A program made the translations under genes and the position numbers. A DNA stretch of 64,000 bases from an uncultured Bordetella sp. (GTDB lineage Bacteria > Pseudomonadota > Gammaproteobacteria > Burkholderiales > SG8-39), in assembly GCA_964564865.1 (NCBI GenBank), contig CAZMDA010000014.1, positions 113 through 64,112 of the forward strand, in the 5' to 3' direction. Below the pieces are notes generated by a model, which was given only the letters and a program-made list of their open reading frames with translations, did not search any database and was not told where the DNA came from. Positions 3,663-50,721 of this stretch are shown in pieces (positions within the stretch are counted from its first letter, which is position 1; every line of letters starts with the position of its first letter).

Positions 3663-3818
3663 TCAGGCGGGCTTGTCGCCGCCGGGCTTGGCGGCCTCCT
3701 GCGCCTTCGCCGCGTCCTGCGGCGCCTTGTAGTCGCCGATGACGCCCTTCAGCGGGCAGGCGGAGACGATCGCGCACTTGCTGCAGCCGACGGCCAGTGC
3801 AACGGGACAGAGCGTCAT
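3663..3818 (-). CDS. Unannotated 51-aa four-cysteine protein MTLCPVALAVGCSKCAIVSACPLKGVIGDYKAPQDAAKAQEAAKPGGDKPA
   Basis: Translated by hand (below the ORF-track length cutoff); strong SD GAGGAGG overlapping the alkB stop TGA; GC3-rich codons like neighbouring genes. Confidence 0.8.
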   Translation of the reverse strand: MTLCPVALAVGCSKCAIVSACPLKGVIGDYKAPQDAAKAQEAAKPGGDKPA

Positions 3819-5167: not shown

Positions 5168-5192
5168 AACGTGCTCGGTATGCCGGGTCGCA

Positions 5193-5212
5193 ATGTGCAC
5201 GATCGTGCACAT
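5193..5212. repeat. Perfect 20-bp palindrome ATGTGCACGATCGTGCACAT (type A)
   Basis: All 10 pairs checked by eye; intergenic, 19 nt beyond the regulator stop. Confidence 0.9.
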
Positions 5213-5231
5213 GTGCGCCAAGTCCATGGCG

Positions 5232-5981
5232 TCAGCGGATGGCCTCGACCGCCGCCGTGAAGACGTATCCCGCGCCGCGTTCCGTGCGGATGATCCCGGT
5301 ACCCGTGCTGCTGTCTCCGAGCCTGCGGCGCAGGCGCCCGACCTGGACGTCGATGGAGCGGTCGTAGACCTCGTCGTTGTGCAGCCTCGACAGATCCAGC
5401 AATTGCTCGCGCGACAGAACGCGCTGCGGCGAGGCGAGAAAGGCCACCAGCAGGTTGAATTCGCTGTTGGTGAGCGCCACGGACTCGCCGTCGGCGTTCT
5501 TCAAGCGGCGCAGGCGCACGCTAAGCTCCATGCCGGCGAAACGGTAGGCGCGAATCTTCGACAGGCCGTCGGCCACGGTTTGCTGGGCACGGGCGCGGCG
5601 CAGCAGGGCGCGGATCCGCGCCAGCAGCTCGCGGGGCGAAAACGGCTTGGTGAGGTAGTCGTCGGCGCCCAGCTCGAGGCCCATGACGCGGTCGGCCTCG
5701 TCCTTGCGGCCGGTCAGCATGATGATCGGAATCCCGGAGTGCTCTCTCAGGCGGCGGGCGATCTGCATGCCGTCCTCTCCGGGCAGCTTCAGGTCGAGCA
5801 CGATCAAGTCGACGGCCTCGCGCTCCAGGATCGCGCTTACTTCTGCGCCGCCTGCCTGCCCGGTGACCCGCATGTCGTAGTCCCCGAGGTAGTCCGTGAT
5901 CAGCTTGCGGATATCGGGGTCGTCGTCCACGACCAGTACGTGCGTGGACGCAGCATCCGGTGGGGGCATCAGGCCCTTCAT
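5232..5981 (-). CDS. OmpR/VirG-like DNA-binding response regulator
   Basis: Receiver VLVVDDD...LDLKLP...KPF plus winged helix EFNLLVAFL...SREQLL...EVYDRSIDV...RGAGY; start 5981 chosen for its GGAG SD. Confidence 0.92.
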   Translation of the reverse strand: MKGLMPPPDAASTHVLVVDDDPDIRKLITDYLGDYDMRVTGQAGGAEVSAILEREAVDLIVLDLKLPGEDGMQIARRLREHSGIPIIMLTGRKDEADRVMGLELGADDYLTKPFSPRELLARIRALLRRARAQQTVADGLSKIRAYRFAGMELSVRLRRLKNADGESVALTNSEFNLLVAFLASPQRVLSREQLLDLSRLHNDEVYDRSIDVQVGRLRRRLGDSSTGTGIIRTERGAGYVFTAAVEAIR

Positions 5982-6198
5982 GCGGTCAGGCTCCAGGAGG
6001 CGCATCGGGGTCGATACTCGACGGCAGGCATGGCCTGAGTATGTTCCCGCGACGCGGGGCGCATGTCATCCGTCATATTGCGGCATCACCCGGTCATGCT
6101 GGCTGAGGCACTGGCGCTTACCTTACCCGAAACTTACATTCACGGGCGCAGGCGGTGCGGCCGGGCGCAAGCTCGAGGCCGCGACACTGCCGGGAGCA

Positions 6199-6561
6199 AT
6201 GGTGTACGGAAAGGGCTGTATTCTTGTCCTCGAAACGGACGAACTCATTCGAGAGCTGCTCGTGCGCTGGCTTGGCGATGAAGGTTTCGGCGTCTTGGCA
6301 CGGCCCCCTGGAGCGCGCCTGACCAGGGGGAAGTCGATCCGCCTGGTCATCGCCGACCTGTCCGATCCCCGGCATGCCTACGCCCAGATTGCAGCATTGA
6401 AGTCCATGTACGGCGCCCCGGTGCTCGCGCTATCGGCGCGCTTTCGACGCGGCCTCGGCGGCTCGCGGGAGGCGGCGCAGCGGCTGGAAGTGAGCGGTAC
6501 GTTGCCCAAGCCATTCACGCGGGCGGAGCTGTTGGCTGCAGTGCACGAGGCGCTGGCGTGA
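6199..6561 (+). CDS. Single-domain, partly degenerate response regulator receiver
   Basis: ILVLETD...LVIAD...LALSA...LPKPF; stop overlaps the kinase start (GTGA). Confidence 0.7.
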   Translation: MVYGKGCILVLETDELIRELLVRWLGDEGFGVLARPPGARLTRGKSIRLVIADLSDPRHAYAQIAALKSMYGAPVLALSARFRRGLGGSREAAQRLEVSGTLPKPFTRAELLAAVHEALA

Positions 6562-9500
6562 CGGATACAGGCAGACCGGCGAACGAGCCGGTATCGCGGG
6601 CGGGGCGCGAATCGCTCGAAAGCGAGATGGCGCAGCGCACAGCGCAATTGGAGCGTGTCAACGAGGCGCTTCGCCAGTCGGAAGAGCGCTACGGCCTCGC
6701 TTTGGAGGCCACCGAAGAGGGGCATTTCGACGTCAACGTCGACACCGACGAACTCCTCACCTCCGAGCGGCTGAACGAAATCTACGGTTTTCCGCCCGGA
6801 ACGCGCGTGCTGAAGCGCAGCGAGTACCTGAAGGACTTCGGCTTCTACGGCGACGACGGCGAGGTCTACCGAGCGGCAATCGCTGCCGCGGAAGCGCCGG
6901 GCGGGCCGTCACGCTACGAGTTCGAGTATCGCATCCAGCGTCCGTCGGGCGAGCTGCGATGGCTGAAGACGCGCGGGTTGGTGATACGCGACGCCGAAGG
7001 ACGTGCCCGGCGCCGGACCGGCATGGTGGCCGATATCACCGAAGCGAAGAATGCCGAGGCGGCGCTGCGCGAATCCGAGGAGCGATACGGGCGTGCGGTC
7101 CAGGCAAGCGAGGCCGGGTTCTGGGAATGGACCGTGGCCTCCGACACGTTCTACGCGTCGCCGCGCCTGCTCGAGATCTACGGGTTCGAGCCTGGCACCA
7201 CGTTCGCGGGTCGGGCCGACTTCCTCGCCCGCTTTCCGTTCCATGCCGAGGACAAATCGCGCTGGGAGCGTGCGATCGCGGCGCACTTCGCCGGGCATAC
7301 TGCCCGCTTCGACATCGAGATGCGCTTGCTTCCGCGCGGTGAGTTGCGCTGGATTCACCTTACCGGGCTATGCACGCGGGACAAGGACGGAACTGTGGTG
7401 CGCTGGAGCGGTTCCTCAGTCGATATCACTGAGCGCAAGCGGGTCGAGGTTGCGTTGCGTGAATCCGAAGAGCGATTCGCGCTCGCGGTCGCCGGCGCGA
7501 ACGAGGGCATCTTCGATTGGGAAGTGGCGAAGGACCGCGTATACATGTCGGCGCGCGCGCAGGAGATCTTCGGCCTGGTGCCGGGCGAGCCGTGGCGCCC
7601 CCGGCGGGAGTGGATCGCGCTCACTGCGCGACGCACCCCGGGACATCTGGAGCGGGCGGAGGCGGCGCTTCTGGCGCATCTGCGCGGCGAGACACCGATG
7701 TTCCTGCTTGAGTTCGAGCTGGTGCTCCCGGACGGAGGGCGGCGCTGGATTCGCCAGCGCGGCGTGGGTCAGCGGGACGCCGCGGGCCGCGTCCATCGCA
7801 TGGCCGGATCGTTCGAGGACATCAGCGACCGCAAGGCGATCGAGGCTGCGATCCGCCGGAGCGAGACCTACCTCGAGGAGGCGCTGCGTCTGGGTCAGGC
7901 CGGCAGCTTCGCCTACGGGGTGCGGGAGCGGCGCCAGGTGCATTGGTCGCCGACCACCTTCGGCTTGTTCGATTTCGACCCCGGCCCGTCGCCACCTTCC
8001 GCAGAGGAGTTGTGGACCCGCATCCATCCGGAGGACGTCGCGGCGGTTCGCCAGGCGCGCGAGCGGGCGATCCGCGACAAGTGCGAGTACGTCGCCCGCT
8101 ACCGGGCGGTCCATCGCGACGGGTCGATACGGTACCTGCAGTCGGCGGGGCGCCCCTGGCTGGACGAGCAGGGCAACGTGACCGAGCTGGTCGGCGTCGT
8201 CATGGATGTCACCGAGCCGACCCTGGCGGAGAGGACCCTGCGCGAGAGCGAGGCGCGGTTCCGCGCCCTTACCGAACTGTCTTCCGACTGGTTCTGGCGG
8301 CAGGACGAAACACTTCGCTTTCGCTACATGTCGAAACTTGCACCTGCCCTAGGCGGGTATCCCGCGGAGGTCTCGGTCGGCAAGCTGCGGTGGGAGCTTC
8401 CTGGCCTCGTTCCGCTGTCGTGCTCCTGGGCCGAGCACCAGGCCACCCTGGAGGCGCGCCTGCCTTTCCGGGACCTGGAGCTGGCGCGAACGCTGCCGGA
8501 CGGGACCGTCGCATACCTCAGCATCAGCGGCGCGCCGATCTTCGACGAGGCCGGGCGCTTCCTCGGCTACCAGGGCGTCGGCCGCGACATCAGCGCCGGG
8601 AAGCGGATCGAGGAGGCACTGCGCGCGCGCGAGGAGCAGTTGCGCAGCGCGCAGCGCCTGGAGGCGCTGGGAACCCTGGCCGGCGGCATCGCGCATGACT
8701 TCAACAACATCCTTGGCGCGATCCTCGGTTATGGTGAGATGGCGCTGCGCGACGCGCCCGCTGGCAGCCGCCTGCGCCGCGACCTGGACAGCATCGTCGC
8801 CGCCGGCGAGCGCGGCCGTGCGCTCGTGGAACGCATCCTTGCGTTCAGCCGCAGCGGTGTCAGCGAGCGCGTTGCGGTGCATGTCGAGACAGTGGTGGGC
8901 GAGGCATTAGACCTGCTGCGCGCCAGCCTGCCGCCCGGTGTTCGCATCGAGGCCGACTTGCGCGCAGGGCGTGCTGCAATGCTCGGCGACCCGACGCAGG
9001 TGCACCAGGTCGTGATGAACCTGGCGTCCAACGGCATCCAGGCGATGGCCGGGGGCGGCACGTTGTGGGTGTACCTGGTCGTGGAGCGCTTCGCCGAACC
9101 TCGGGTGGCCGTCACCGGGACGGTTCCCGCGGGGGAGTACATCGTACTTCGCGTGGTTGATGAGGGCAGTGGCATCGCCGCCGGGATCCTGGACCGGATC
9201 TTCGATCCGTTCTTCACCACCAAGGACGTCGGCGTGGGAACCGGCCTCGGCCTTTCTCTGGTCCATGGCATCGTCGCGGAGGTCGGTGGTGCGGTGGACG
9301 TCTCGACCGAGGCCAACCTTGGAAGCGTATTCACCGTCTACCTGCCGCGGCAGGGCGATGCGGCTGTGAGCAACGGCCGAATGGCAACCGAGATGCCGCG
9401 CGGTCACGGCGAGCGGGTACTGATCGTGGACGACGAGGAACCGCTGGTGCGGCTCGCGACGGCGACCTTGTCGGATCTCGGCTACGATCCTGTCGGATTC

Positions 9501-9776
9501 ACCTCCAGCGCCGGCGCCCTCGAGGCATTGCGCGCCGCCCCGGAATCCTTCGACGCCGTGATCACCGACGAGCGGATGCCCGGACTTTCCGGGACGGCAC
9601 TGATCGGCGCGGTGCGCGGCATCCGGCGCGACATCCCGATCCTTCTCGTGAGCGGCTACATCGGTGGCAGTATCGTCAACCGTGCCTACAACGCCGGCGC
9701 AGACGAAGTGCTGCGCAAGCCGCTGGCGGCGCGAGACCTGGCCGCCAGCCTCGCGAGGCTTCTGCAGTCGCCATAG
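6558..9776 (+). CDS. Cytoplasmic multi-PAS hybrid histidine kinase with VirA-like transmitter and receiver
   Basis: About five PAS/PAC repeats separated by [9 protein letters not shown]-type linkers; H box [23 protein letters not shown]; C-terminal receiver; no TM segment. Confidence 0.92.
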   Translation: [1072 protein letters not shown]

Positions 9777-9942
9777 ATCGGATTCGTTGGCCCTGGATCT
9801 GCGCTGATAGCGGCCTGCCGCCGCGACAACCGCAATACTCGCGTATGGCATGACATTCGCCGGCCCGCGTTGCGACACAAGCGCGCGGCGGGCAGGGTGG
9901 ACACTGGCCTCACCTGCAAATACCAGGCGAGGAGCCAAACCA

Positions 9943-10767
9943 GTGACCACGATTACCACCAAGGACGGCACGCAGATCTACTACAAGGACTGGGGCAAGG
10001 GACAGCCCGTGGTGTTCAGCCACGGCTGGCCGCTGTCCTCGGATGCGTGGGAAGCGCAGATGTTCCATCTCGCTTCGAATGGCTTTCGCTGCATCGCGCA
10101 CGATCGCCGCGGGCACGGGCGCTCCAGCCAGCCTTGGGAAGGCAACCATATGGACCAGTACGCCGACGACCTGGCGGAACTGTTCGAGGTGCTCAACCTG
10201 AAGAACGCGATCATGATTGGCCACTCCACCGGCGGCGGCGAAGTCGCGCGCTACATCGGCCGGCACGGCACCGAGCGTGTCGCCAAGGCGGTATTGATGG
10301 GGGCGGTGCCGCCCATCATGGTGAGGACGGCAGCCAACCCGGGTGGATTGCCGCTGGAGGTGTTCGACGGTTTTCGCAAGGCCTACCTCGCCGACCGCGC
10401 GCAGTTCTTCATCGACGTGGCGAGCGGGCCATTCTTCAGCTTCAACCGCCCGGGCGCGAAGATTTCGCAGGGCGTGATCAATGCCTGGGTGATGCAGGGC
10501 CTGATGTCCGGCCACAAGAACGGCTACGACTGCATCAAGGCGTTCTCCGAAACCGACTTCACCGGCGACCTGAGGAAATTCGATGTGCCCACGCTGATCG
10601 TGCACGGCGACGACGACCAGATCGTGCCGATCGGCGCCTCGGCGATGCTTTCCGCGAAGCTCGTCAAGGGATCGATCCTGAAGATCTACAAGGGGGGCTC
10701 GCACAGCCTGGGCGATACCAGCAAGGACCAGCTCAATGCCGATCTGCTGGCGTTCGCGAGGAGCTAG
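9943..10767 (+). CDS. cpo: Non-heme chloroperoxidase-type alpha/beta hydrolase
   Basis: GTG start after GGAG; [32 protein letters not shown] motifs. Confidence 0.9.
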
Positions 10768-10769
10768 CC

Positions 10770-11675
10770 ATGGTCCGTGTCCTGCGGGGACTCCTCGCCA
10801 CGGCCGCCGCACTCTCGGTGACCGGCGCGTCGGCGGCGTCGCCCGCGGCTGCGGCGTCGACACGGTACGTGGAGGTCCAGGGGCGGCCGGTCGCCTATCG
10901 GGTGATCGGCAAAGGCAGGCCGCTCCTCATGGCGACCCGCATGCGCGGGACGCTCGACACCTGGGACCCGCTGTTCCTGGACGAGCTTGCGAAGACGCAT
11001 CGTGTCATCACCTTCGACTACCCGGGCGCGGGTTACTCGGCGGGCGTGCTGCCCGGAGACATGCGCGAGATTGCGGCCTTGGTCAAGGATCTCGCGGCGG
11101 CGCTCGGCCTTAAGCGGACCGCGATCCTCGGCTGGTCGTGGGGCGGGCTCGTGGCGCAGGTGACGCTGCTCGACTACCCGTCGCTCGTGACCCACGCCGT
11201 CATCGTCGGGAGCGCACCGCCCGGGAAGGGCAATGCGACGATCCAGCCGCACTGGCTGGAGCGGGCGTTCAAGCCTGTCAACGACCTCGCCGACGAAGAG
11301 GTCTTGTTCTTCGAGCCGAAGTCCGACGCCAGCCGCGACGCGGCACGGAAGTCCCATGCACGCATCTACGCCCGGCCAGGCGTGGCGGAGCGGATCCCAT
11401 CGTCACTGCGGGACATCCAAGCCTACCTGAAGGTGGCGGAGGGTGTGCGCGAGGATACGCCCGGGCGACGCGAAGCGCTGACGACAACGCGGATCCCGAT
11501 CCTGATCCTGTGCGGTGACAACGACCCGAGCGTGCCGGCCGGAAACTGGTATCCGCTCGTCGGCCGCATCCCGCGCGGCCAACTCATCGTCCTGCCCGAA
11601 TCGGGCCACGGGCCCCAGCACCAGTATCCGGAACTGGCTGCGAGATACATCGCCGCCTTCCTGGAGTCGAAGTGA
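10770..11675 (+). CDS. Exported alpha/beta hydrolase
   Basis: Signal peptide; GWSWGG nucleophile elbow; GDND acid; SGHG His. Confidence 0.8.
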   Translation: MVRVLRGLLATAAALSVTGASAASPAAAASTRYVEVQGRPVAYRVIGKGRPLLMATRMRGTLDTWDPLFLDELAKTHRVITFDYPGAGYSAGVLPGDMREIAALVKDLAAALGLKRTAILGWSWGGLVAQVTLLDYPSLVTHAVIVGSAPPGKGNATIQPHWLERAFKPVNDLADEEVLFFEPKSDASRDAARKSHARIYARPGVAERIPSSLRDIQAYLKVAEGVREDTPGRREALTTTRIPILILCGDNDPSVPAGNWYPLVGRIPRGQLIVLPESGHGPQHQYPELAARYIAAFLESK

Positions 11676-11718
11676 AAACCGCCGTTTCCGATCGATCGCC
11701 TGTCAAGGGAGTACCGCA

Positions 11719-12573
11719 ATGACAACAGCATTGGCCAATGCCGCAAGGGAAGAGCGCATCGAAGGGGCGCGCGGACTTGGGATCTTCGTCCGCTCGTGGC
11801 AGCCGGAAGAAAAGCCCCGCGCGATCGTCGCCATCTGCCACGGCGTCAATTCCCACAGCGGGTACTACACCTGGGTGGCCGAGCAGTTCGTGGCGGCCGG
11901 CCTCGCTGTGTATGCGCTGGACCTGCACGGTCGCGGCAAGTCGGACGGCGAGCGCTACTACCTTGAGAAGTTCGACGACTACCTCAGCGACGTCGATGCC
12001 CTCGTCAGGCTCGCGAAATCGCGCGAACCGGGCCTGCCCCTGTTCCTGCTGGGGCACAGTGCCGGCGGCGTCATTTCCTCCGTCTACGCGCTGGAGCACC
12101 AGTCCGAGCTCGCCGGGTTGATCTGCGAGAGCTTTGCGTTCCAGGTGTACGCGCCGGACTTCGCGCTCGCGGTACTGAAGGGACTAAGCCATGTCCTGCC
12201 GCATGCCCATGTGCTCAAGCTGCCGATCGCGGACTTCTCCCGCGATCCGGCGGTCGTGGAGGCCATGAACAACGACCCGCTCATCGCCAATGAAGTCCAG
12301 CCTACGCGCACTGTGGCCGAACTGGTGCTGGCCGACGAGCGGCTGAAGCGGGAGTTCCCGCTCTTCAGGTTGCCGGTGCTGATCCTCCACGGCACGGCGG
12401 ACAAGGTGACAAAGCCCGGCGGGAGCCAGCTCTTCTACGACAACGCCGGCTCCGCCGACAAGACGCTCAAGCTCTACGAAGGGCATGTCCACGACCTATT
12501 AAACGACTTCGGCAAGGAGAAGGTCATGGCGGACGTCACGGCCTGGATTAAGGCGCACCTGCCGGCACGGTGA
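11719..12573 (+). CDS. Lysophospholipase/monoacylglycerol lipase-like hydrolase
   Basis: HGVNSHSGYY, DLHGRGKSDG, GHSAGG, HGTADK, HDLLND. Confidence 0.85.
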   Translation: MTTALANAAREERIEGARGLGIFVRSWQPEEKPRAIVAICHGVNSHSGYYTWVAEQFVAAGLAVYALDLHGRGKSDGERYYLEKFDDYLSDVDALVRLAKSREPGLPLFLLGHSAGGVISSVYALEHQSELAGLICESFAFQVYAPDFALAVLKGLSHVLPHAHVLKLPIADFSRDPAVVEAMNNDPLIANEVQPTRTVAELVLADERLKREFPLFRLPVLILHGTADKVTKPGGSQLFYDNAGSADKTLKLYEGHVHDLLNDFGKEKVMADVTAWIKAHLPAR

Positions 12574-12681
12574 TGGCGACCAGTTGCTTCGCAACGGCTG
12601 ACATGCAGCCGGGCCGGCCTGACACAACGCCGCGCTGGTTCACCGCCAGACTGTCCCCATAACTCACTAGAAGGAATGATC

Positions 12682-13428
12682 ATGTCGAAGCTCCTGAAGA
12701 AATCTCTCCGGCTGCTCTGCGCGACCCTGGCGGCCTGGAGTCTTGTGTCTGCACCGGGCGCGCTCGCGCAGTCCAGCGTCCTGCCCACGGGCGGCGGCAA
12801 GGCGCTGCTGGATGTGAATGACACGGTACTCCTGCTGCTGGACCACCAGTCGGGCCTGTTCCAGACCGTGAAGGACGTGCCGGTGGCGGACCTGCGGCGC
12901 AACGTGGAGATGCTGTCGCGGCTGGCCACGCTGCTGAAGATCCCGGTGATCACCACGGCGTCCGAGCCGGACGGCTCGAACGGGCCGCTAATGCCGGAGA
13001 TCCACCAGCTCGCGCCGCACGCGGTCTACGTGCCGCGCAAGGGAGAGGTCAACGCCTGGGACAACGAGGACTTCGTTCGCACCGTGCGCGCCACCGGCCG
13101 CAAGACGCTGGTCATGGCCGGCGTGTGGACCAGCGTGTGCGTCATGTTCCCAGCACTGGATGCCAAGGCCCAGGGGTACAAGGTCTATGCCGTCATGGAT
13201 GCCTCCGGGGATCCGAGCGAGCTCGCTTCGATCACCTCGCTGGCGCGCTTCGCGCAGGGGGGGGTGATCCCGACCTCGACCAATGCCGTGCTGTCGGAGA
13301 CGCACCGCACCTGGAACCGCCCCGAGGCCGCCGAGCTGGCCAAGCTGTATGCGCTGGTCGCGCCCAACTACCAGGCGGTGGCGGAAAGCTACCAGCGCGC
13401 TCAGGAAGCGGCCCGCAAGGCGAAGTAG
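12682..13428 (+). CDS. ycaC: YcaC-like isochorismatase-family cysteine hydrolase with N-terminal signal peptide
   Basis: LLLDHQSGL, RKGEVNAWDN, GVWTSVC motifs; SD AGAAGGA. Confidence 0.8.
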   Translation: MSKLLKKSLRLLCATLAAWSLVSAPGALAQSSVLPTGGGKALLDVNDTVLLLLDHQSGLFQTVKDVPVADLRRNVEMLSRLATLLKIPVITTASEPDGSNGPLMPEIHQLAPHAVYVPRKGEVNAWDNEDFVRTVRATGRKTLVMAGVWTSVCVMFPALDAKAQGYKVYAVMDASGDPSELASITSLARFAQGGVIPTSTNAVLSETHRTWNRPEAAELAKLYALVAPNYQAVAESYQRAQEAARKAK

Positions 13429-13467
13429 CCGGCGAACCGGCTCTCCGACACCAACCCTGGAAGGATC

Positions 13468-14001
13468 ATGATGAGCATCGATACCGCGAAGGCGATGCGC
13501 AAGGCGCCGCTTGGCACTCCGACCGGCCTGGGCGCCGACGCCAGGCGCGACATCGCCGGCGCCCTCAACCTGCTGCTGGCCGATTTCTACGCGCTCTATT
13601 TCAAGACGAAGAACTTCCACTGGCATGTGTCGGGGCCGCACTTCCGCGACTACCACGAGCTGCTGGACGAGCAGGCGGCGCAGCTCTACGCCGCCACCGA
13701 CTCGCTGGCCGAGCGGGTGCGCAAGGTGGGCGGCACGACGCTGCGCTCGGTGGGCCACATCGCCCGGTTGCAGCGGGTGCTGGACAACGACGCCGACTAT
13801 GTATCGCCGCTGGACATGCTGGCGGAGCTGAAGGACGACAACCTCGGAATGGCGTCGCACTTGCGGGCCGCGCACGGCGTGTGCGACGAACACCGCGACA
13901 TCGCCACCGCGAGCCTGCTGGAAGTCTGGATCGACGAGGCGGAGAAGCGCACCTGGTTCCTGTTCGAGGCAAGCAGGAAGGGCGACGCCCCCGGCCGGTG
14001 A
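13468..14001 (+). CDS. dps: Dps/ferritin-like DNA protection protein
   Basis: YFKTKNFHWHVSGPHFRDYHELLDEQ, AERVRKVGG, IDEAEKRTWFL. Confidence 0.93.
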   Translation: MMSIDTAKAMRKAPLGTPTGLGADARRDIAGALNLLLADFYALYFKTKNFHWHVSGPHFRDYHELLDEQAAQLYAATDSLAERVRKVGGTTLRSVGHIARLQRVLDNDADYVSPLDMLAELKDDNLGMASHLRAAHGVCDEHRDIATASLLEVWIDEAEKRTWFLFEASRKGDAPGR

Positions 14002-14036
14002 CGGCCGTTCGATCCGACGCGGCGCGGGTCTGTGCG

Positions 14037-14074
14037 GATACACGCGGGATACCTTCACGACATCCGCCGGCAAC
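14037..14074 (+). promoter_or_regulatory. Four phased pentamers (GATAC, GATAC, GACAT, GCAAC) at exact 11-bp spacing; candidate OmpR-family binding array
   Basis: Starts at 14037, 14048, 14059, 14070, upstream of the methyltransferase. Confidence 0.45.
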
Positions 14075-14966: not shown

Positions 14967-15761
14967 ATGCCCCAGCCTGAGCCGTATTTCCGGGAAGCGG
15001 GCGCCGGTCCCGGCGTCGTCTGCCTGCATTCCAATGCGAGCAGCTCCAGCCAGTGGCGCGGGCTCATGGAGTCGCTCGCGCCGGCGTTCCATGTGCTGGC
15101 ACCCGATTCCTACGGCTCGGGCAAGAGCCCGGACTGGCCCTCGGACCGCGTCATCACGCTGCGGGACGAAGCGGCGCTCGTCGAGCCGGTGCTCGCGCGG
15201 GCAGGCGCGCCGTTCGCGCTGGTGGGGCATTCCTACGGCGCGGCGATCGCGCTCTCCGCGGCGCTGGCGAATCCGGGCCGCGTGCGGGCGCTGGCGCTCT
15301 ACGAGCCGACGCTGTTCTCGCTGCTGGCGCAGGAGCAGCCGCCGTCGAACGACGGCGAGGGCATCCTCGGCGCGGTGGCCCGCGCGAGCGCGGCGCTGGA
15401 CGCCGGCGACCGCGACGCCGCCGCGCGGCATTTCATCGACTACTGGATGGGCGAGGGCGCCTGGGCGCAGACCCCCGAATCACGCAAGCCGGCGATCGCC
15501 GCCTCGGTGGTGAACGTGCGGCGCTGGGCGCATGCGCTGACCACCGAGCCCGCGCCGCTGGCGGCGTTCCGCAAGCTCGACATCCCGGTGCTCTACCTGA
15601 TCGGCAAGCGCTCGACCGCGTCGGCGCACGGCGTGGCGCGGGTGCTGACGCAGGCCCTGCCGCGCGTGGAGGTGGTCGAATTCGAGAAGCTGGGCCACAT
15701 GGGGCCGGTGACCCATCCGGAGCCGGTGAACGAGGCGATCCGGGCGTTCCTCGGGCGCTGA
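14967..15761 (+). CDS. Alpha/beta hydrolase
   Basis: LHSNASS, GHSYGAA, GHMGPVTHP. Confidence 0.85.
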   Translation: MPQPEPYFREAGAGPGVVCLHSNASSSSQWRGLMESLAPAFHVLAPDSYGSGKSPDWPSDRVITLRDEAALVEPVLARAGAPFALVGHSYGAAIALSAALANPGRVRALALYEPTLFSLLAQEQPPSNDGEGILGAVARASAALDAGDRDAAARHFIDYWMGEGAWAQTPESRKPAIAASVVNVRRWAHALTTEPAPLAAFRKLDIPVLYLIGKRSTASAHGVARVLTQALPRVEVVEFEKLGHMGPVTHPEPVNEAIRAFLGR

Positions 15762-15802
15762 CGGGCTTCCCATGTAACCGATCGGTTACATTACGGGCTT
15801 CC
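15761..15802. repeat. Perfect 20-bp palindrome ATGTAACCGATCGGTTACAT (type B, 15772-15791) flanked by exact 10-bp direct repeat ACGGGCTTCC (15761-15770 and 15793-15802)
   Basis: Read directly from the sequence. Confidence 0.9.
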
Positions 15803-15843
15803 GGCGATGCCCTGTTGCAGCTTGACCGAGAAAGGAGAAGCCA

Positions 15844-16170
15844 ATGAAATCGAGACTTGCCGCCCTGTTGTTCCTCGCCTGCGCAGGCTGCGCCGGCGTC
15901 GGCCCGGCCCAGGCGCCCGGGTTCACGCCGGAAGTCCGCGCGCGGATCGTCGCCAACCAGACCACCGCGGACGAAGTGCGCCGGATCCTCGGCGAGCCGT
16001 CGCAGGTCCTCTGGTTGCGCGCCCAGCAGCGCCACGCCTGGGGCTATCGCTACCGGGGCGATTACGAAGCGCGGGAGTTCTGGGTCGAGCTCTCGGCGGA
16101 CGGCAGGGTGCACGCGACCAGCGACGGGCCGGACTTCGCGGCCGGGCGCTACCGGTTCGGCGGGCAATAG
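15844..16170 (+). CDS. Small lipoprotein, SmpA/BamE-like fold
   Basis: SD AAGGAG; lipobox-like LACAGC; TTADEVRRILGEP...WGYRY. Confidence 0.7.
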   Translation: MKSRLAALLFLACAGCAGVGPAQAPGFTPEVRARIVANQTTADEVRRILGEPSQVLWLRAQQRHAWGYRYRGDYEAREFWVELSADGRVHATSDGPDFAAGRYRFGGQ

Positions 16171-16183
16171 CCGCCGCGCCCCG

Positions 16184-17284
16184 CTAGGCGAGGTGCGCCA
16201 GCAGCGCCCGCGTGACCGCCTCGGGCTGCTCCTGCTGCACCCAATGCCCGGCGCCCTCGACCAGGACGGGCGGGGCCATCCGCGCGCAGGCGACGCGCTG
16301 CATCTTCTCGAAGTCCCCGGGCCGCTGGTAGATGCCCCAGTCGCTGCGGCCGGCGATGAAGCTGGCCGGAACGTCGATGGCACGGCCGGCGTAGAGCTGG
16401 TGGTCGGCAACGAAGCGCCCGCCGAGGCGGCAGCGGTACCAGTTGAGGCCGCCCTGGAAGCCGGTGCGCTCGTACTCCGAGCTGTAGACGCGCAGCTCGT
16501 CCTCGGTGAGCCAGGCGCAGGCGGCGATCTGGGCGGCCGAGGGCATTTCCGAGGCCACGGTCTCGGCCATGCCCTTGTCGCGCTCCATGATGTAGTAGGT
16601 GGGCATCTTCGCGATCTCCTCCGGCGCCCAGGAGGCGAGCGGCACGGGCCGGTTGGCAACCCAGTCGGCGCTCTTGTGGTGGTAGTAGGCGCGCAGGAAG
16701 GCGTGCACGCCCTGCGGGCAGCGATGCATGTCCGCGTCGGCCTCGCGCGTGCCGTAGTACCACTGGTAGTGCTTGCGCGGCGGGTCGAGCGCGCCGAGCT
16801 GCTCGTTGAGGCGCTCGGTCGAGGGCACGCCGGCGTCGGGCGCGAGGGCAGGCGGGCCGGCGAACGGCGCGCTCATCAGGACCAGCGACCGGAACACGTC
16901 CGGCCGCACCAGCGCGCTCCAGGCCGCCACCATGGCGCCGAAATCGTGGCCGACGACCGCCGCCACGGACTTCAGGCCCAGCGCGTGGACCAATCCCAAG
17001 CTGTCGCGCGCAAGATTGAGCGCCCGGCACGCGCCCCAGTCGCCGTCGTAGCCCGCGTCCCATCCCGTGGTGTGGCCGTAGCCGCGCTGGTCGGGGGCGA
17101 TGACGTGGTAGCCCGCGTTCGCCAGCGCGGGCATCACCTTGCGCCAGCTGTAGGCGAGTTCGGGAAAGCCGTGCAGCAGAAGGACGGCGGGGCGTCCCGC
17201 CTCGCCCGCCTCGAGGACGTGCATCGCCAGGCCGTTGACGCCCGGCACCAGCCGCGAGCGGATTCCCGCGGGCAGGGCGTACAA
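16184..17284 (-). CDS. Epoxide hydrolase-like alpha/beta hydrolase
   Basis: LLHGFPELAYSWR, APDQRGYG, GHDFGA, AGHWVQQEQP; TTG start. Confidence 0.85.
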   Translation of the reverse strand: MYALPAGIRSRLVPGVNGLAMHVLEAGEAGRPAVLLLHGFPELAYSWRKVMPALANAGYHVIAPDQRGYGHTTGWDAGYDGDWGACRALNLARDSLGLVHALGLKSVAAVVGHDFGAMVAAWSALVRPDVFRSLVLMSAPFAGPPALAPDAGVPSTERLNEQLGALDPPRKHYQWYYGTREADADMHRCPQGVHAFLRAYYHHKSADWVANRPVPLASWAPEEIAKMPTYYIMERDKGMAETVASEMPSAAQIAACAWLTEDELRVYSSEYERTGFQGGLNWYRCRLGGRFVADHQLYAGRAIDVPASFIAGRSDWGIYQRPGDFEKMQRVACARMAPPVLVEGAGHWVQQEQPEAVTRALLAHLA

Positions 17285-17285
17285 C

Positions 17286-19016
<1,731 letters not shown>

Positions 19017-19018
19017 GG

Positions 19019-20014
19019 CTAGTCCGGCTTGATGCCGGCGCGGTTCACCACGGCGGTCCAGCGCTCCACCTCGGCCTTCATGAAGGCGCCGAACTCCTCG
19101 GGCGTGCCCGCCACGACGTCGAAGCCGATCTGCGTCATGCGCTCGCGCACCTCGGGCGAGCGCAGCGCGCGCACCGTGGCGTCGTTCAGCTTCGCCACGA
19201 TGTCGCGCGGCGTCTTCGCCGGCGCCGCCGCGGCCTGCCACGAGGTCACCACCAGGTCCGGGAAGCCGGCCTCGGCCGCGTTCGGCACCGCCGGCAGCTG
19301 CGGGTGGCGCGCCTTCGCCGTCACCGCGAAGGCCTTCATGCGGCCGGCCTTGATGTAGTTGGTGACCGCGCCCAGGTTCTGGAACGACAGGTCCACCTGG
19401 CTGCCCATGAGGTCGGTCTGGCAGGCGGCGCCGCCGCGGTAGGGCACGTGCACCGCGAAGATGCCCGCGCCTTGCTTGAAGACTTCGCCGGTGAGGTGGT
19501 CCGACGAGCCGGTGCCGCTGGAGCAGTACGACAGGCGCCCCGGGTTCTTCTTCGCGTAGTCGACCAGCTCCTTCATGGTCTTCGCCGGCAGGTCGGGCCG
19601 CGTCACCAGCACGTTCGGCGTGGTCACCGCCAGTGTGATCGGCGCGAAGTCGCGCAGCGGGTTGTAGCGCAGGTCCTTGAACAGGGCGGCGTTGATGGAG
19701 AACACCCCGATCGAGCCCACCAGGATGGTGTAGCCGTCGGGCTCGGCCTTGGCGACGAACTCGGCGGCGATGGCGCCGTTGGCGCCGGGCCGGTTCTCCA
19801 CCACCGCCGGCTGGCCGAGGAGCTCCTGGAACTTCGAGCCGATGGCGCGGCCGACGATATCGGAGGAGCCGCCGGCAACGAACGGGATCACGACCCGGAT
19901 CGGCTTCGAGGGAAACGCCTGCGCCTGCGCGCCGGCGGCGGCGGCCAGGCCCGCGGCGAGCAGGGCCGCGGCGGCGAGCGGGGTGCGAAGCGGATTGCGG
20001 ATGGTGGTGGTCAT
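19019..20014 (-). CDS. Tripartite tricarboxylate transporter substrate-binding protein (Bug/TctC)
   Basis: [33 protein letters not shown] motifs. Confidence 0.93.
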
Positions 20015-20102
20015 GGCGCGGCCCTCTGCCTCCTGGATGGGGAGGGGGCAGTCTAGGAAGGCCCGGGGGCAGCGTCAAATCACGGAGGTATAAACTCGAT
20101 AC

Positions 20103-21883: not shown

Positions 21884-22464
21884 GAAATCAGGGACGGACC
21901 ACGATTTTCCTCGCCGCGCTGCTCGCCGGCTGCGCCGGCGGCCCGGTGCCGCCCGACTGGCAGCTGGAGGCGCGCGCCGCGCTGCAGGGCTTCGAGAAGC
22001 ACTACCTGGAGGGGAACACCCGGGTCGCGGAGGTCGAGTTCGCGCGCGCGCGCGACGCGGTGCGCGCCACCGGCCGCGCCGATCTTCTCGCTCGCGTGGA
22101 ACTGGCGCGCTGCGCGACGCGCATCGCGGGCCTGGAGGCCGACGGCTGCCCGGGGTTCGAGGCGCTGCGCCGCGACGCCGGCCCCGAAGAGCTGGCGTAC
22201 GCGGACTACCTCGCGGGCAGGGGCAAGCATACGGTTGCGGAAGACGCGCTCTCCCGGCTCGTCGCCGCAGGGGTGGCGTTCCGGTCCGGCGCCGTCACGC
22301 CGGCGCAGATCGCCGCCGCGATCGACACCGCGTCAGCCCAGGGCTGGCGCCGGCCGCTGCTGGCGTGGCTGGAGGTGGAGGCGAGGCGCGCCGAGGCTGC
22401 GGGCGATCGCGAGGCGGCCGAGCGCCTGCGGCGCCGGATCGCGCTCGTGCTGGGAAAGAGCTAA
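21880..22464 (+). CDS. Hypothetical helical lipoprotein of the MCE module
   Basis: GTGA overlap with the MCE gene; lipobox LAGC. Confidence 0.7.
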   Translation: MRNQGRTTIFLAALLAGCAGGPVPPDWQLEARAALQGFEKHYLEGNTRVAEVEFARARDAVRATGRADLLARVELARCATRIAGLEADGCPGFEALRRDAGPEELAYADYLAGRGKHTVAEDALSRLVAAGVAFRSGAVTPAQIAAAIDTASAQGWRRPLLAWLEVEARRAEAAGDREAAERLRRRIALVLGKS

Positions 22465-27576: not shown

Positions 27577-29057
27577 TTGACGACCCCTTCGCGCAGCTCG
27601 CGCCGCAGCTCGCCGCCACGGGGGCCGCGATCGTGCGCCTGACCTCCGACAGCCGCCAGGCGGCGCCCGGCGCGGCGTTCTTCGCCTGGCCCGGCGCCGG
27701 CGGCGACGGCCGCCGCCATATCCCGGAGGCGATCGGCCGCGGCTGCGACGCGGTGCTCTGGGAGCGCGAAGGCTTCGACTGGAACAGCCAGTGGCGCGTG
27801 CCCAACGTCGGCGTGAGGGGCCTGAAGGCGCGCGCCGGGCACCTCGCCGACGCCTTCTACGGCCGGCCCTCGGCGTCGCTGTGGACCTGCGGCGTCACCG
27901 GTACCAACGGCAAGACCTCCTGCGCGCAATGGATCGCGGCCGCGCTCTCGGCGCGCGGCGAGAAGACCGGGCTGATCGGCACGCTGGGGGCGGGTTTCGC
28001 CGGCGCGCTGGCGCCGGTGGCGAACACCACGCCCGACGCGCTCGAGGTGCACCGGCTGCTGGCGCAGATGAAGGGCGCCGGCGCCGCGGCCGTGGCGATG
28101 GAGGTGTCCTCGCACGGCCTGGACCAGGGGCGCGTGAACGGGGTCGCGTTCGACTGTGCCCTGTTCACCAACCTGTCGCACGACCACCTCGACTACCACG
28201 GCAGCATGGAGGCCTACGCCGCCGCCAAGGCGCGCCTGTTCGACACGCCCGGGCTGGAAACCGCGGTGCTGAACCTGGACGACGTGCTGGGGGTGCAGCT
28301 CGCCGCCCGGCTCGCGGCGCGCGGCGTGTGCACGATCGGTTACACGCTGGACCGCGCCGCGGTGGCGCCGGGATCGGTGAGCGACTGGATCTGCGCGAGC
28401 CCGGAAGGCGATGCGCGCATCGCCATCGAATCGAGCCGGGGCCGCGCAACGGTCGCCTTCGGCCAGCTTGGGCGCTTCAACCTCGCCAATGCCCTGGGCG
28501 TGCTGGGCTGCCTGCTCGCGCGCGGCCTGCCGTTCCCGGAGGCGGCGCGGCTGCTGGAGAAGCTGCCGCCGGTGCCGGGCCGCATGCAGCGGGTCGGTTC
28601 GGGCGAGGCGGGTCCGCTGGTGGTGGTGGACTACGCCCACACGCCGGATGCGCTGGACAAGGTGCTGCAGGCCCTGAAGCCGGTGGCGGCGGCGCGCGGC
28701 GGCCGCCTCGTGGCGGTGTTCGGCGCCGGCGGCGGGCGCGATGCCGCCAAGCGGCCCGCGATGGGCGCGGCCGCGGCGCGCCACGCCGACCGCGTGGTCC
28801 TGACCTCGGACAACCCCCGCGGCGAGGACCCGCTCGCCATCCTGGCCGCGATCGCGAAGGGCGTCACGGTGCCGCACGAGGCCGAGCCCGACCGCGCGCG
28901 CGCCATCGCCAGCGCGATCGCGCTCGCCGCGCCGGCCGACGTGGTGCTCGTCGCCGGCAAGGGCCACGAGGCGTTCCAGGAGATCGGCGGCCGCCGGCTG
29001 CCGTTCTCGGATGCGGCGGTGGCGCAGGCCGCGCTGGCGTCGAGGGCCGGGACATGA
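27573..29057 (+). CDS. murE: UDP-MurNAc-tripeptide ligase; start probably CTG overlapping the ftsI stop
   Basis: DSR, GVTGTNGKT, MEVSSH, VDYAHTPD, DNPR, GKGHE; no in-frame ATG/GTG before the first conserved strand. Confidence 0.92.
   Translation: MIDDPFAQLAPQLAATGAAIVRLTSDSRQAAPGAAFFAWPGAGGDGRRHIPEAIGRGCDAVLWEREGFDWNSQWRVPNVGVRGLKARAGHLADAFYGRPSASLWTCGVTGTNGKTSCAQWIAAALSARGEKTGLIGTLGAGFAGALAPVANTTPDALEVHRLLAQMKGAGAAAVAMEVSSHGLDQGRVNGVAFDCALFTNLSHDHLDYHGSMEAYAAAKARLFDTPGLETAVLNLDDVLGVQLAARLAARGVCTIGYTLDRAAVAPGSVSDWICASPEGDARIAIESSRGRATVAFGQLGRFNLANALGVLGCLLARGLPFPEAARLLEKLPPVPGRMQRVGSGEAGPLVVVDYAHTPDALDKVLQALKPVAAARGGRLVAVFGAGGGRDAAKRPAMGAAAARHADRVVLTSDNPRGEDPLAILAAIAKGVTVPHEAEPDRARAIASAIALAAPADVVLVAGKGHEAFQEIGGRRLPFSDAAVAQAALASRAGT
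28326..28345. repeat. Chimeric palindrome-family copy GTGTGCACGATCGGTTACAC inside murE
   Basis: Left arm matches type A and right arm matches type B, 12 nt each with a shared core. Confidence 0.4.
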
Positions 29058-48622: not shown

Positions 48623-49479
48623 GCCAGTCTATCGACAAGTTGCTGGAGCGCCTGGACCAGCTGCTGCCGCCGCCGCCGCCCGCGACCGACTGGGGCGCGA
48701 GCATCGCCTTCCGCTGGCGCCGGGCGGTGGGACCCAACGGACGCGGCTGGCTGCAGCCTGTGAAGCACGTGCACAAGATGAAGCTCTCCGACCTGCAGGG
48801 CATCGGCCCCCAGATCGCCAAGGTGGAGCAGAACACGAAGCAGTTCATGGACGGCCGCCCGGCCAACAACGTGCTCCTCACCGGCGCGCGCGGCACCGGC
48901 AAGTCCTCCATCGTGAAGGGGCTGCTGAACAAGTACCACCGGCAGGGCCTGCGGCTGGTCGAGGTCGAGAAAAGCGACCTCGGCGACCTGCCGGCGATCA
49001 CCGACGCGCTGTCCGCGCGCCCGGAGCGGTTCCTGGTCTTCTGCGACGACCTCACCTTCCACGGCGCGGAGGAGGGCTACATCGCGCTCAAGGTGGCGCT
49101 GGACGGCTCCATCTCCACCACCTCCGAGAACATGCTCATCTACGCCACCTCCAACCGGCGCCACCTGATGCCGGAGTACATGGCCGAGAACCTCGAGACC
49201 AAGTACGTCGGCGACGAGATCCACCCCGGCGAGACCGCGGAGGAGAAGATTTCCCTGTCCGAGCGCTTCGGCCTGTGGGTGTCCTTCTATCCCTTCGACC
49301 AGGACGAGTACCTCGCCATCGTCGCGCACTGGCTGAAGACCTTCGGCTGCTCGGCGAAGGAGATCGAGTCGGCGCGCGAGGAGACGCTGCAGTGGTCCAT
49401 GCAGCGGGGCTCGCGCAGCGGCCGCATCGCCTACCAGTTCGCGCGGGACTGGGCCGGGCGCCACGCCAAGAAGAAGTAG
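48619..49479 (+). CDS. DUF815 AAA+ ATPase
   Basis: [23 protein letters not shown]. Confidence 0.9.
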
Positions 49480-50402
49480 TGGTCGAGGTCGCCGCCGCCG
49501 TCATCGAGCGCGCGGACGGCAGTTTCCTGCTCGCGCAGCGCCCCGCCGGCAAGGTGTACGCCGGCTGGTGGGAGTTTCCCGGCGGCAAGGTGGAGGCAGG
49601 CGAGCCCTCGGCCGACGCGCTCGCGCGCGAGCTGCGCGAGGAGATCGGCATCGAGGTGGTGAAGGCCTACCCCTGGGTGTCGCGCGTGCACGTCTACGAG
49701 CACGCCGTGGTCATGCTGCATTTCTACCGGGTGGTGGAGTGGCGCGGCGAGCCGCACGCGCGCGAGGGCCAGGCGCTCGCCTGGCAGCGCCCCGGGGAGC
49801 CCGCGCTGGAGCCGATGCTGCCCGCCAACGGGCCGGTGCTGGCGTCGCTGGCGCTGCCGCTGGAGTACGCCATCACCGACGCGGAGTCGCTCGGCCTGGA
49901 GGGCATGCTTGCCTACGCCGAGATGCGGCTCGCGCAGGGGCTGCGCATGATCCAGGTGCGGGACAAGGCGCTGCCGGAGCGCGACCTGCTCATCAGCGAG
50001 TTGAAGCAGAGGGCGGCGCGCCATGGGGCGCGGATCCTCGTGAACGGCGGGCCCGTAGGAGAAAACACCGCGGATGGCATCCACTACACCGCCGCGCAAC
50101 TGATGAAGCTGAAGTCGCGGCCGCCGGAGATCCTCGCCGGCGCGTCCTGCCACACGGTGCAGGAGCTCGGCCACGCCATGGCCATCGGGCTGGACTTCGC
50201 GGTGCTGGGGCCGGTGCGCGCCACGGCGACCCACCCGGGGGCGCAGACGCTGGGCTGGGAGGGCTTCGCGCGGATCGCGGCGAACGCCTCGATCCCGGTG
50301 TACGCCATCGGCGGGCTGACGGCGGAGGACCTGGACAACGCGCGCGCCGCGGGCGCGCACGGGCTGGCGATGATCCGGGGCAGCTGGACGGCCCGGATGT
50401 AA
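49479..50402 (+). CDS. Nudix (MutT-like) / thiamine phosphate synthase-like fusion
   Basis: Nudix box GGKVEAGEPSADALARELREEIG; C-terminal ASCH...YAIGG. Confidence 0.88.
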   Translation: MVEVAAAVIERADGSFLLAQRPAGKVYAGWWEFPGGKVEAGEPSADALARELREEIGIEVVKAYPWVSRVHVYEHAVVMLHFYRVVEWRGEPHAREGQALAWQRPGEPALEPMLPANGPVLASLALPLEYAITDAESLGLEGMLAYAEMRLAQGLRMIQVRDKALPERDLLISELKQRAARHGARILVNGGPVGENTADGIHYTAAQLMKLKSRPPEILAGASCHTVQELGHAMAIGLDFAVLGPVRATATHPGAQTLGWEGFARIAANASIPVYAIGGLTAEDLDNARAAGAHGLAMIRGSWTARM

Positions 50403-50417
50403 CCGATCGGTTACATC
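50396..50417. repeat. Second type B palindrome (22 bp: GATGTAACCGATCGGTTACATC) containing the Nudix gene stop codon
   Basis: 20-bp core identical to 15772-15791; lies between convergent genes. Confidence 0.9.
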
Positions 50418-50436: not shown

Positions 50437-50721
50437 CTACTTCAACTCCACCTCGACGAACACGAACTCGTGCGGGTTCGGGTTCACGACGTTGTGCTCC
50501 ACCCCGGCCGGCCGCGCGTAGGACTGGCCGAAGGCGAGCTCGGTGACGATCTCCCCGTTGGCGGTCTCCTGCATCAGCTTGCCGGCGGTGAGCACCACTA
50601 CGATGTAGTCGTGGGCATGCCGGTGCCAGCCGGTCTCGGCGCCCGGCGCGAAGCGCCACTCGGTGACCAGGGCGCGGCCGGTTTCCTGCAGCAGCCTGGA
50701 GGTGGCCTGCGGGCGGCTCAC
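50437..50721 (-). CDS. Small cupin, BauB-like
   Basis: [16 protein letters not shown]...RPAGVEHNV...FVEVELK. Confidence 0.8.

Follow-up and report, generated by a model that had tools for sequence, protein, structure and literature searches.

A 20-bp palindrome behind genes of uncultured Burkholderiales is probably one copy of a lineage-restricted, REP-like family

Introduction

Repetitive extragenic palindromic (REP) elements are palindromic units of 20–40 bp that occur in many dispersed extragenic copies, are specific to particular lineages and leave no target duplication. They lie mainly between convergent or co-directional genes, no more than about 20 bp from 3′ ends, and their termini sometimes supply the stop codon. 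In the published GTAG and CGTC superfamilies, conv-REPs are separated by <20 bp from the 3′ end of either convergent open reading frame (ORF), and REP termini serve as stop codons (Di Nocera et al. 2013, PMC3733652). REPINs are doublets of ~70–110 bp composed of two imperfect REPs and a spacer, and they stand on both sides of a RAYT gene (Bertels and Rainey 2011, PMC3116915; PMC3337134). Here we describe a perfect palindrome, ATGTAACCGATCGGTTACAT, at positions 15772–15791 of a 64,000-nucleotide stretch of DNA (the window) from an uncultured Bordetella sp. of the Burkholderiales lineage SG8-39 (GenBank assembly GCA_964564865.1, contig CAZMDA010000014.1, positions 113 to 64,112, forward strand). 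An earlier note on the same DNA had taken this palindrome and the 10-bp direct repeat around it for the signature of a DDE-type insertion. We consider it probable that the palindrome is instead one copy of a lineage-restricted, REP-like family that spread without target duplication.

All of the general REP features listed above hold for the family described here. Unlike the members of both superfamilies, its unit carries neither a GTAG nor a CGTC tag at one end and instead has GTAA/TTAC within each arm. REPs are imperfect and oriented, whereas this palindrome shows perfect symmetry. Set in a genome of 70% G+C, it is rich in A+T, whereas REP stems are usually G+C-rich, and it is found only as singletons. 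With the REPIN/RAYT system it shares the character of a non-autonomous repeat population, with a dominant master and rarer variants, vertical inheritance and persistence at orthologous sites, but its unit is a single palindrome of 20–22 bp and no RAYT was seen in ~1 Mb of sequence. Because tag, doublets and RAYT were not found, we do not file the palindrome as a classical REP or REPIN.

Two other kinds of element invite comparison. Miniature inverted-repeat transposable elements (MITEs) mobilized by DDE transposases resemble the family in their terminal inverted symmetry, non-coding nature and copy number above one; the family differs in making no target duplication and in a size far below that of known MITEs, and no cognate insertion sequence turned up among the loci examined. 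The Neisseria repeat dRS3 (of the dRS3/NIME repeats) is a 20-bp palindrome of the form ATTCCC-N8-GGGAAT, with a variable centre, that flanks repeat units. Like dRS3, the palindrome borders variable intergenic or gene segments; unlike dRS3, its whole 20-mer is fixed, and its link to insertions and deletions amounts to a hint.

Results

A dispersed family with a fixed core

The 20-mer ATGTAACCGATCGGTTACAT is present in two exact copies in the window (15772–15791 and 50397–50416) against 0.00 expected in shuffles, and a chance origin is rejected on that figure. A further match at 28327, with three mismatches and inside the murE coding sequence, was judged to be chance and not a family copy. Using the exact 18-mer TGTAACCGATCGGTTACA and one genome per species, we matched at least 90 stretches. 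Among the 90 matches listed, 82 come from seven metagenome-assembled genomes (MAGs) labelled Burkholderiales, Betaproteobacteria, Nitrosomonadales or Lysobacterales, which gives at least 82 family loci; among 80 loci listed, at least 33 belong to SAW223, at least 26 to Bin_20_2 and at least 6 to SAR238. The host genomes have 65–70% G+C (70.6% in the window), and the AT-rich repeat stands at many unrelated loci within them. Presence at many unrelated loci requires copying, so the palindrome is no isolated case but a dispersed element, and a very small one. When related metagenomes were mapped onto the window, read depth spiked over the palindrome, which indicates many further copies with other flanks. 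Biofilm metagenome runs contain the entire window sequence.

Alignment of 84 copies yielded the consensus R-A-TGTAACCGATCGGTTACA-T-Y, a perfect palindrome of 20 bp that extends to 22 bp with the R/Y pair at −2/+2. A occupies position −1 in 74 of the 84 copies and T position +1 in 81; farther out there are just weak symmetric preferences, such as C at −5 (44/84) and G at +5 (54/84). Degenerate copies are rare, with four or five bearing 1–4 mismatches in 639 kb, and exact copies are about as common as degenerate ones when only copies not used to fetch their locus are counted. All copies are singletons, the closest pairs being at least 1.5 kb apart (L152). One variant, TGTTACCGATCGGTAACA at L098:2064–2081, carries a symmetric double change that keeps the palindrome intact, and could stand for a sub-family or for a copy in which one change compensated the other. 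No RNA family in Rfam corresponds to the palindrome, and a literature search for its sequence found no paper. A phage link was dropped, the single viral-contig match being probably chance.

Copies lie just behind genes

To place the copies, the coding strand around each was inferred from third-position G+C periodicity. Neighbouring genes are convergent at 44 of the 84 copies and tandem or co-directional at 26; two were called divergent, one of which is actually in a urease operon, between ureE and ureF. Distances from stop codon to core mostly fall between −5 and 21 nt, with peaks at −5, 0–1, 8–11 and 19–21 nt. The peak at −5 represents genes that stop at the TAA of the palindrome, which is the case for 16 of 123 adjacent gene ends, and at L089:7731 the two TAAs of a single palindrome end both convergent genes. 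The family as a whole is dispersed, nearly always located just 3′ of genes and often the source of the stop. In L104 and L149, the stop codon is followed first by a copy and then by a distinct canonical terminator (G+C hairpin plus T-run), so these copies at least are transcribed. The peaks are spaced by roughly 10 nt in a histogram that retains orthologous copies; helical phasing or the footprint of the ribosome could account for this spacing, as could the mere shortness of convergent spacers.

Both window copies follow the same pattern. The first lies 10 nt past the stop of an alpha/beta-hydrolase gene (14967–15761, + strand; an ORF of 264 aa matching Pfam Abhydrolase_1, Abhydrolase_6 and Hydrolase_4), whose nearest named relative is from Rivibacter subsaxonicus at 76% identity. 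A putative lipoprotein gene (15844–16170, +; an ORF of 108 aa with no Pfam match) begins 52 nt (15792–15843) past the 20-mer and is followed by a convergent second alpha/beta-hydrolase gene (hydrolase-2; 16184–17284, −), which adjoins the palindrome directly in relatives without the lipoprotein gene. The second copy, kept in the relatives X5, X6 and X7, lies between convergent genes. To its left is a NUDIX plus TMP-TENI (MutT/ThiE-like) gene (49275–50402, +), whose true start is probably downstream of 49275 and whose stop is the palindrome's TAA at 50400–50402; to its right is a Cupin_2 gene (50437–50721, −) with its stop 20 nt from the 20-mer.

The core persists while its surroundings change

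Relatives of the hydrolase locus were retrieved through the hydrolase protein, and hence without selecting for the palindrome. An exact core lies just past the stop in L086 (92% identity), L085 (91%), L087/L088 (90%), L180/L181 (92%), L183 (90%) and L089 (87%), and L182 (91%) has a decayed copy, TGTAACCGATTGATTGCA, with three positions degraded. The core is thus exact in six of the seven lineages so retrieved, and the flanks are mutually unrelated. It is also exact in haplotypes X5, X7, X9, X13, X14, X16 and X21; the X haplotypes were rebuilt from related-metagenome contigs via substitution tables and not read directly. In nine orthologous pairs from SAW223 and Bin_20_2 the 20-mer is identical at 180 of 180 positions, against 65% in the 25-nt flanks; all of these pairs were fetched by exact match, so this figure is biased and is not used as proof of selection. 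Exact persistence at orthologous sites while flanks diverge is nonetheless what the hydrolase-retrieved loci display.

What lies to the right of the palindrome differs among relatives. The lipoprotein gene is missing in L085, L087, L089, L180 and L183, where hydrolase-2 or ilvD adjoins the palindrome instead. In L089 the original stop of the hydrolase is gone and the palindrome's TAA terminates the gene. Copies have also been gained or lost: L089 has the 7731 copy, haplotypes X12 and X15 lack the one at the hydrolase locus, and that of L182 is decayed. The orthologous copies of X10 and X11 read GAGC in place of GATC at the centre (15782) and carry an A>G change at 15772, so the site can drift in some lineages. 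At 80 more distant hydrolase loci from JGI (65–94% identity) the palindrome is absent. These loci are uninformative as empty sites: those with the 3′ flank on the contig show no conserved downstream synteny, and the 94% locus, L023, ends inside the gene.

The flanking direct repeat is local

In the window the palindrome is embedded in the arrangement ACGGGCTTCC (15761–15770, +), c, ATGTAACCGATCGGTTACAT, t, ACGGGCTTCC (15793–15802, +), in which the first base of the left ACGGGCTTCC is the final A of the hydrolase's TGA stop (15759–15761). Such an arrangement would be expected of a 22-bp non-autonomous DDE-type element, or of two fused insertion-sequence ends, that had duplicated the 10-bp target ACGGGCTTCC. 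We find this explanation extremely unlikely, even though the repeat itself is striking. Both exact copies abut the 22-bp unit symmetrically, and the repeat is well beyond chance, because pairing left and right flanks of different copies predicts 0.04 flanking direct repeats of ≥10 nt per 84 copies. In these respects the earlier description was accurate. ACGGGCTTCC by itself is not a repeated motif, with six matches at ≤1 mismatch in the window against 6.6 expected.

The rest of the family shows no trace of such a process. The flanks of the copy at 50397 have only CGG in common, in keeping with the earlier remark that the other copy lacks a duplication. In an exact-substring test, the 16 nt to the left of each copy were compared with the 16 nt to its right; the length of the longest shared direct repeat was distributed over the 84 copies as in flank-swapped controls, the window copy excepted. 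A fixed-geometry test for decayed duplications covered nine lengths from 3 to 12 nt at offsets of 0–3 on each side, 144 geometries in all; the 10 nt abutting the 22-mer gave 3.45 matching positions against 3.16 in controls, and z ranged from −2.5 to 2.6 over all geometries. Neither exact nor decayed duplications were therefore found in the other 76–83 copies, and the family makes no target-site duplication. Element ends were equally elusive: half-sites standing alone numbered only four (of 8 nt) in 639 kb, none of them ending an insertion sequence, and neither a transposase nor an insertion sequence with (C)ATGTAACCG termini turned up among the loci examined.

The history of the locus points the same way. 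The palindrome predates the repeat, since relatives with as little as 87% protein identity have it between unrelated flanks; both repeat halves are exact only in the window strain (also L001–L004). The left half alone occurs in X7, X13, X16 and the RNA run X21, whose left flank is identical to the window's and whose right flank is unrelated and followed by no lipoprotein gene. The right half occurs elsewhere, as variants matching at 8–9 of 10 positions in relatives that bear the lipoprotein gene (X14 ACGGGCTCCC, X9 ACGGGTTCCC, X5 GCGGGTTCCC) and that differ in the left flank. In full, the flanks of X5 are ACGGGCGCCCG on the left and TTGCGGGTTCCC on the right; X9 and X14 have left flanks of the same kind as X5 and right flanks TTACGGGTTCCC and TTACGGGCTCCC, respectively. 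The two halves thus exist separately. In favour of a transposition event, the lipoprotein-gene haplotypes X5, X9, X14 and L086 have flanks that agree at 6–7 of 10 positions in the same geometry, against ~3.2 in controls, which makes an older duplication within that sub-clade conceivable. Left-flank types do not track hydrolase similarity, so the haplotypes are mosaic. A parsimony argument that TT at 15767–15768 is derived was abandoned, given that X7, X13, X16 and X21 share the left flank and have a more distant hydrolase.

An insertion with target duplication also predicts an empty allele, ...GCGCTGACGGGCTTCCGGCGATG..., that is shorter by 32 nt and keeps a single ACGGGCTTCC; this allele was not seen. 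The sole palindrome-less allele, in X12 and X15 (one study), joins 15758 to 15801 and skips 42 nt (15759–15800) including the stop, so that the extended hydrolase frame is closed by a TGA at 15831–15833 created by substitutions. Its endpoints follow CGGGC(GC) at 15752–15758 and CGGGC(TT) at 15794–15800, a placement that fits slipped mispairing across the hairpin. Close by, upstream of the lipoprotein start, the window has GAA at 15830–15832 where X5, X8 and X12 have ATG; in the X12/X15 allele this difference yields the TGA that closes the frame. We conclude that the 10-bp repeat is peculiar to the haplotype of the window strain and is not an insertion footprint; it would most likely have arisen by recombination or short templated copying between G+C-rich flanks that were already similar. 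Of the earlier proposal of an ultra-minimal mobile element, the very small dispersed repeat survives and the DDE reading does not.

The hairpin and its possible binding partners

As RNA, the 20-mer is predicted to form a hairpin (−8.5 kcal/mol, z = −4.1) whose stem has 8 bp and whose loop reads GAUC. The perfect symmetry of the DNA means that this hairpin would be the same whichever strand is transcribed. Three of the eight stem pairs are G-C. No terminator-like site was detected at either window copy, and a classical terminator or promoter was dismissed there. Longer stems are predicted for individual haplotypes, and G+C-rich flanks give such stems anyway. Selected extension of the stem by the flanks was rejected: contiguous flank complementarity averaged 1.68 against 1.40 in controls; constrained folding gave −19.5 kcal/mol against −19.2 for swapped flanks (p = 0.42); and no covariation was seen at positions 2 to 5 on each side, R at −2 and Y at +2 being independent. 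As the flanks pair no better than swapped ones, the conserved object is the 20–22-mer itself, which points towards recognition by a sequence-specific protein. Possible transcription across the site was seen in RNA run X21, where a 3.4-kb contig, 96% identical, crosses the hydrolase (15300–15791) and the palindrome into the convergent hydrolase-2. This contig suggests read-through transcription, with DNA carry-over also possible; the RNA contigs show read-through alone and carry no 3′-end information.

In a rival view, the palindrome would mainly be bound as double-stranded DNA by a homodimeric protein (for example a nucleoid protein, a roadblock or an ArsR-type winged-helix regulator), and purifying selection would hold it at gene ends, its repeat character being secondary. 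All 20 positions are conserved, the halves vary independently and the stem shows no selected extension. Outside the family, moreover, five of the eight matches listed are exact copies of TGTAACCGATCGGTTACA that precede, by 12–35 nt, homologous genes of the ArsR/SmtB family; the five genomes, from Bacteroidota, Ignavibacteriales and Acidobacteria, are unrelated (L095:1602–1970, L101:7623–7986, L170:6865–7230, L124:1037–1388 and L167:4595–4940). In L095 an SRPBCC gene follows the ArsR gene, and the upstream regions of ArsR homologues from Ralstonia, Caballeronia and Nostoc (L185–L187) contain AACC-N4-GGTT or closely similar motifs. This looks like a conserved operator–regulator pair, and the 18-mer may well be a competent operator. 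A related half-palindrome, GTAACC-N4-GGTT, was noted nearby in L095, L101 and L170 as well.

The placement of the family is nevertheless not that of an operator. The ArsR–SRPBCC operator is a single promoter-proximal site beside its regulator, whereas the palindrome of the Burkholderiales occurs in numerous copies, at 3′ ends and with no ArsR gene close to them. At most 2 of the 84 are divergent, one of them miscalled, and most lie between convergent genes, so that promoters are avoided; the genes downstream of copies share no function. Neither the window nor the 82 family loci yielded an ArsR homologue, and a protein search returned only Bacteroidota-like sequences. An 18-bp palindrome has just nine free positions, so a chance match to an operator is not unlikely, and some copying mechanism is needed for a binding site to arise ~100 times. 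We therefore treat the ArsR link as a lead and not as evidence, and consider it unlikely, though worth keeping in view, that protein binding is the main role of the palindrome.

Borders of gene content

Several copies mark places where gene content changes. At the hydrolase locus the right-hand side of the palindrome comes in at least four versions, with the lipoprotein gene, ilvD or either of two forms of the hydrolase-2 end next to it. At L089:7690–7790, compared with window positions 3663–3818 (− strand), 34 bp with the palindrome (7731) stand in place of ~207 bp that include a small gene, a replacement and not a simple insertion. The window and L087 have here a 51-aa cysteine-rich ORF (MTLCPVALAVGCSKCAIVSACPLKG...) between SRPBCC and fatty-acid desaturase genes. 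In Bin_20_2 (L149:1308–6902), a 5.6-kb operon lies between two modules, each consisting of the palindrome and a GGCCGCCC-N3-GGGCGGCC terminator; its genes encode an IclR regulator, an enoyl-CoA hydratase, a methylmalonyl-CoA mutase (B12 domain) and a CoA transferase fused to a MeaB-like GTPase. SAW223 has a single palindrome–terminator module at the corresponding place (L104:5889–5943), without the operon. Extra segments of 4.4 kb and 0.74 kb begin at the palindrome in L125 and L146, respectively.

Taken together, the changing neighbours, the L089 replacement, the L149/L104 operon and the L125 and L146 segments could be read as the work of recombination sites for gene gain and loss, comparable to Neisseria dRS3 or integron attC, that mark the borders of variable DNA. 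The numbers are small, however, and the excess is not significant: an adjacent insertion or deletion was found at ~5 of 12 palindrome-bearing and ~3 of 17 palindrome-free intergenic regions, and such events must start in intergenic DNA anyway. The variable segments encode no integrase or recombinase, and only one has a second copy at its far border. We hold a dedicated recombination function to be very unlikely. Other differences in the region were also recorded: L089 and L087 lack two window segments, of 8.9 kb (5169–14058, including a Dps/ferritin gene at 13468–14001) and 1.1 kb (18998–20091), and have at 22452/22460 a 3.8-kb DUF3683/FAD-oxidase gene that the window lacks. The borders of all three have no palindrome.

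Discussion

Our preferred explanation remains a REP-like family, to which the window palindrome would belong as one copy. Copies would have spread by a sequence-specific, duplication-free mechanism of the cut-and-paste or copy type, and the likeliest agent would be a hairpin-recognizing, single-strand HUH/RAYT-like enzyme acting in trans. Selection may tolerate copies only behind the 3′ ends of genes, where transcripts of either strand would include a settled copy in their 3′ untranslated region. There the palindrome most likely acts as a 3′-end hairpin and backup stop codon and not as a classical terminator.

Several observations weigh against this account. The unit lacks the classical REP tag, is a perfect and not an imperfect palindrome, and occurs as singletons and not as doublets. 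A RAYT/HUH signature (Y..NPV motif) was not found in ~1 Mb of sequence from the loci examined, and the 31 genes downstream of copies are mutually unrelated and include no transposase. All 20 positions are conserved, without compensatory variation or selected stem extension; on the alignment, this conservation fits protein recognition better than a purely structural role in RNA. Metatranscriptomic read-through into the convergent gene makes strong termination unlikely. No clean pair of filled and empty sites was found that shows the insertion footprint directly, and the incongruence between left-flank types and hydrolase-gene similarity makes an ancestral duplication within the sub-clade conceivable.

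In a more far-reaching version, the 20-bp perfect palindrome would be the entire unit of a REP-like element of a new type that has no RAYT-type GTAG tag. A sequence-specific dimeric protein, possibly of the ArsR-type winged-helix class, would preserve it, and the palindrome would act for the host as a two-way gene-end marker, with the same hairpin and stop on both strands, and as a preferred border of gene gain and loss. We rate this combination as quite unlikely.

The apparent transposon footprint at this locus is a local accident, and with it a striking but wrong reading is disposed of. What takes its place is a very short REP-like family of uncultured Burkholderiales that falls outside both described REP superfamilies and offers a stop codon on both strands. 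Its practical value is modest: it can serve as a lineage marker, and it flags places where assemblies and gene ends need care. For the biology of these repeats, the family bears on how REPs without a dedicated transposase spread, and its exact copies at orthologous sites amid diverging flanks bear on whether the persistence of REPs benefits the host.

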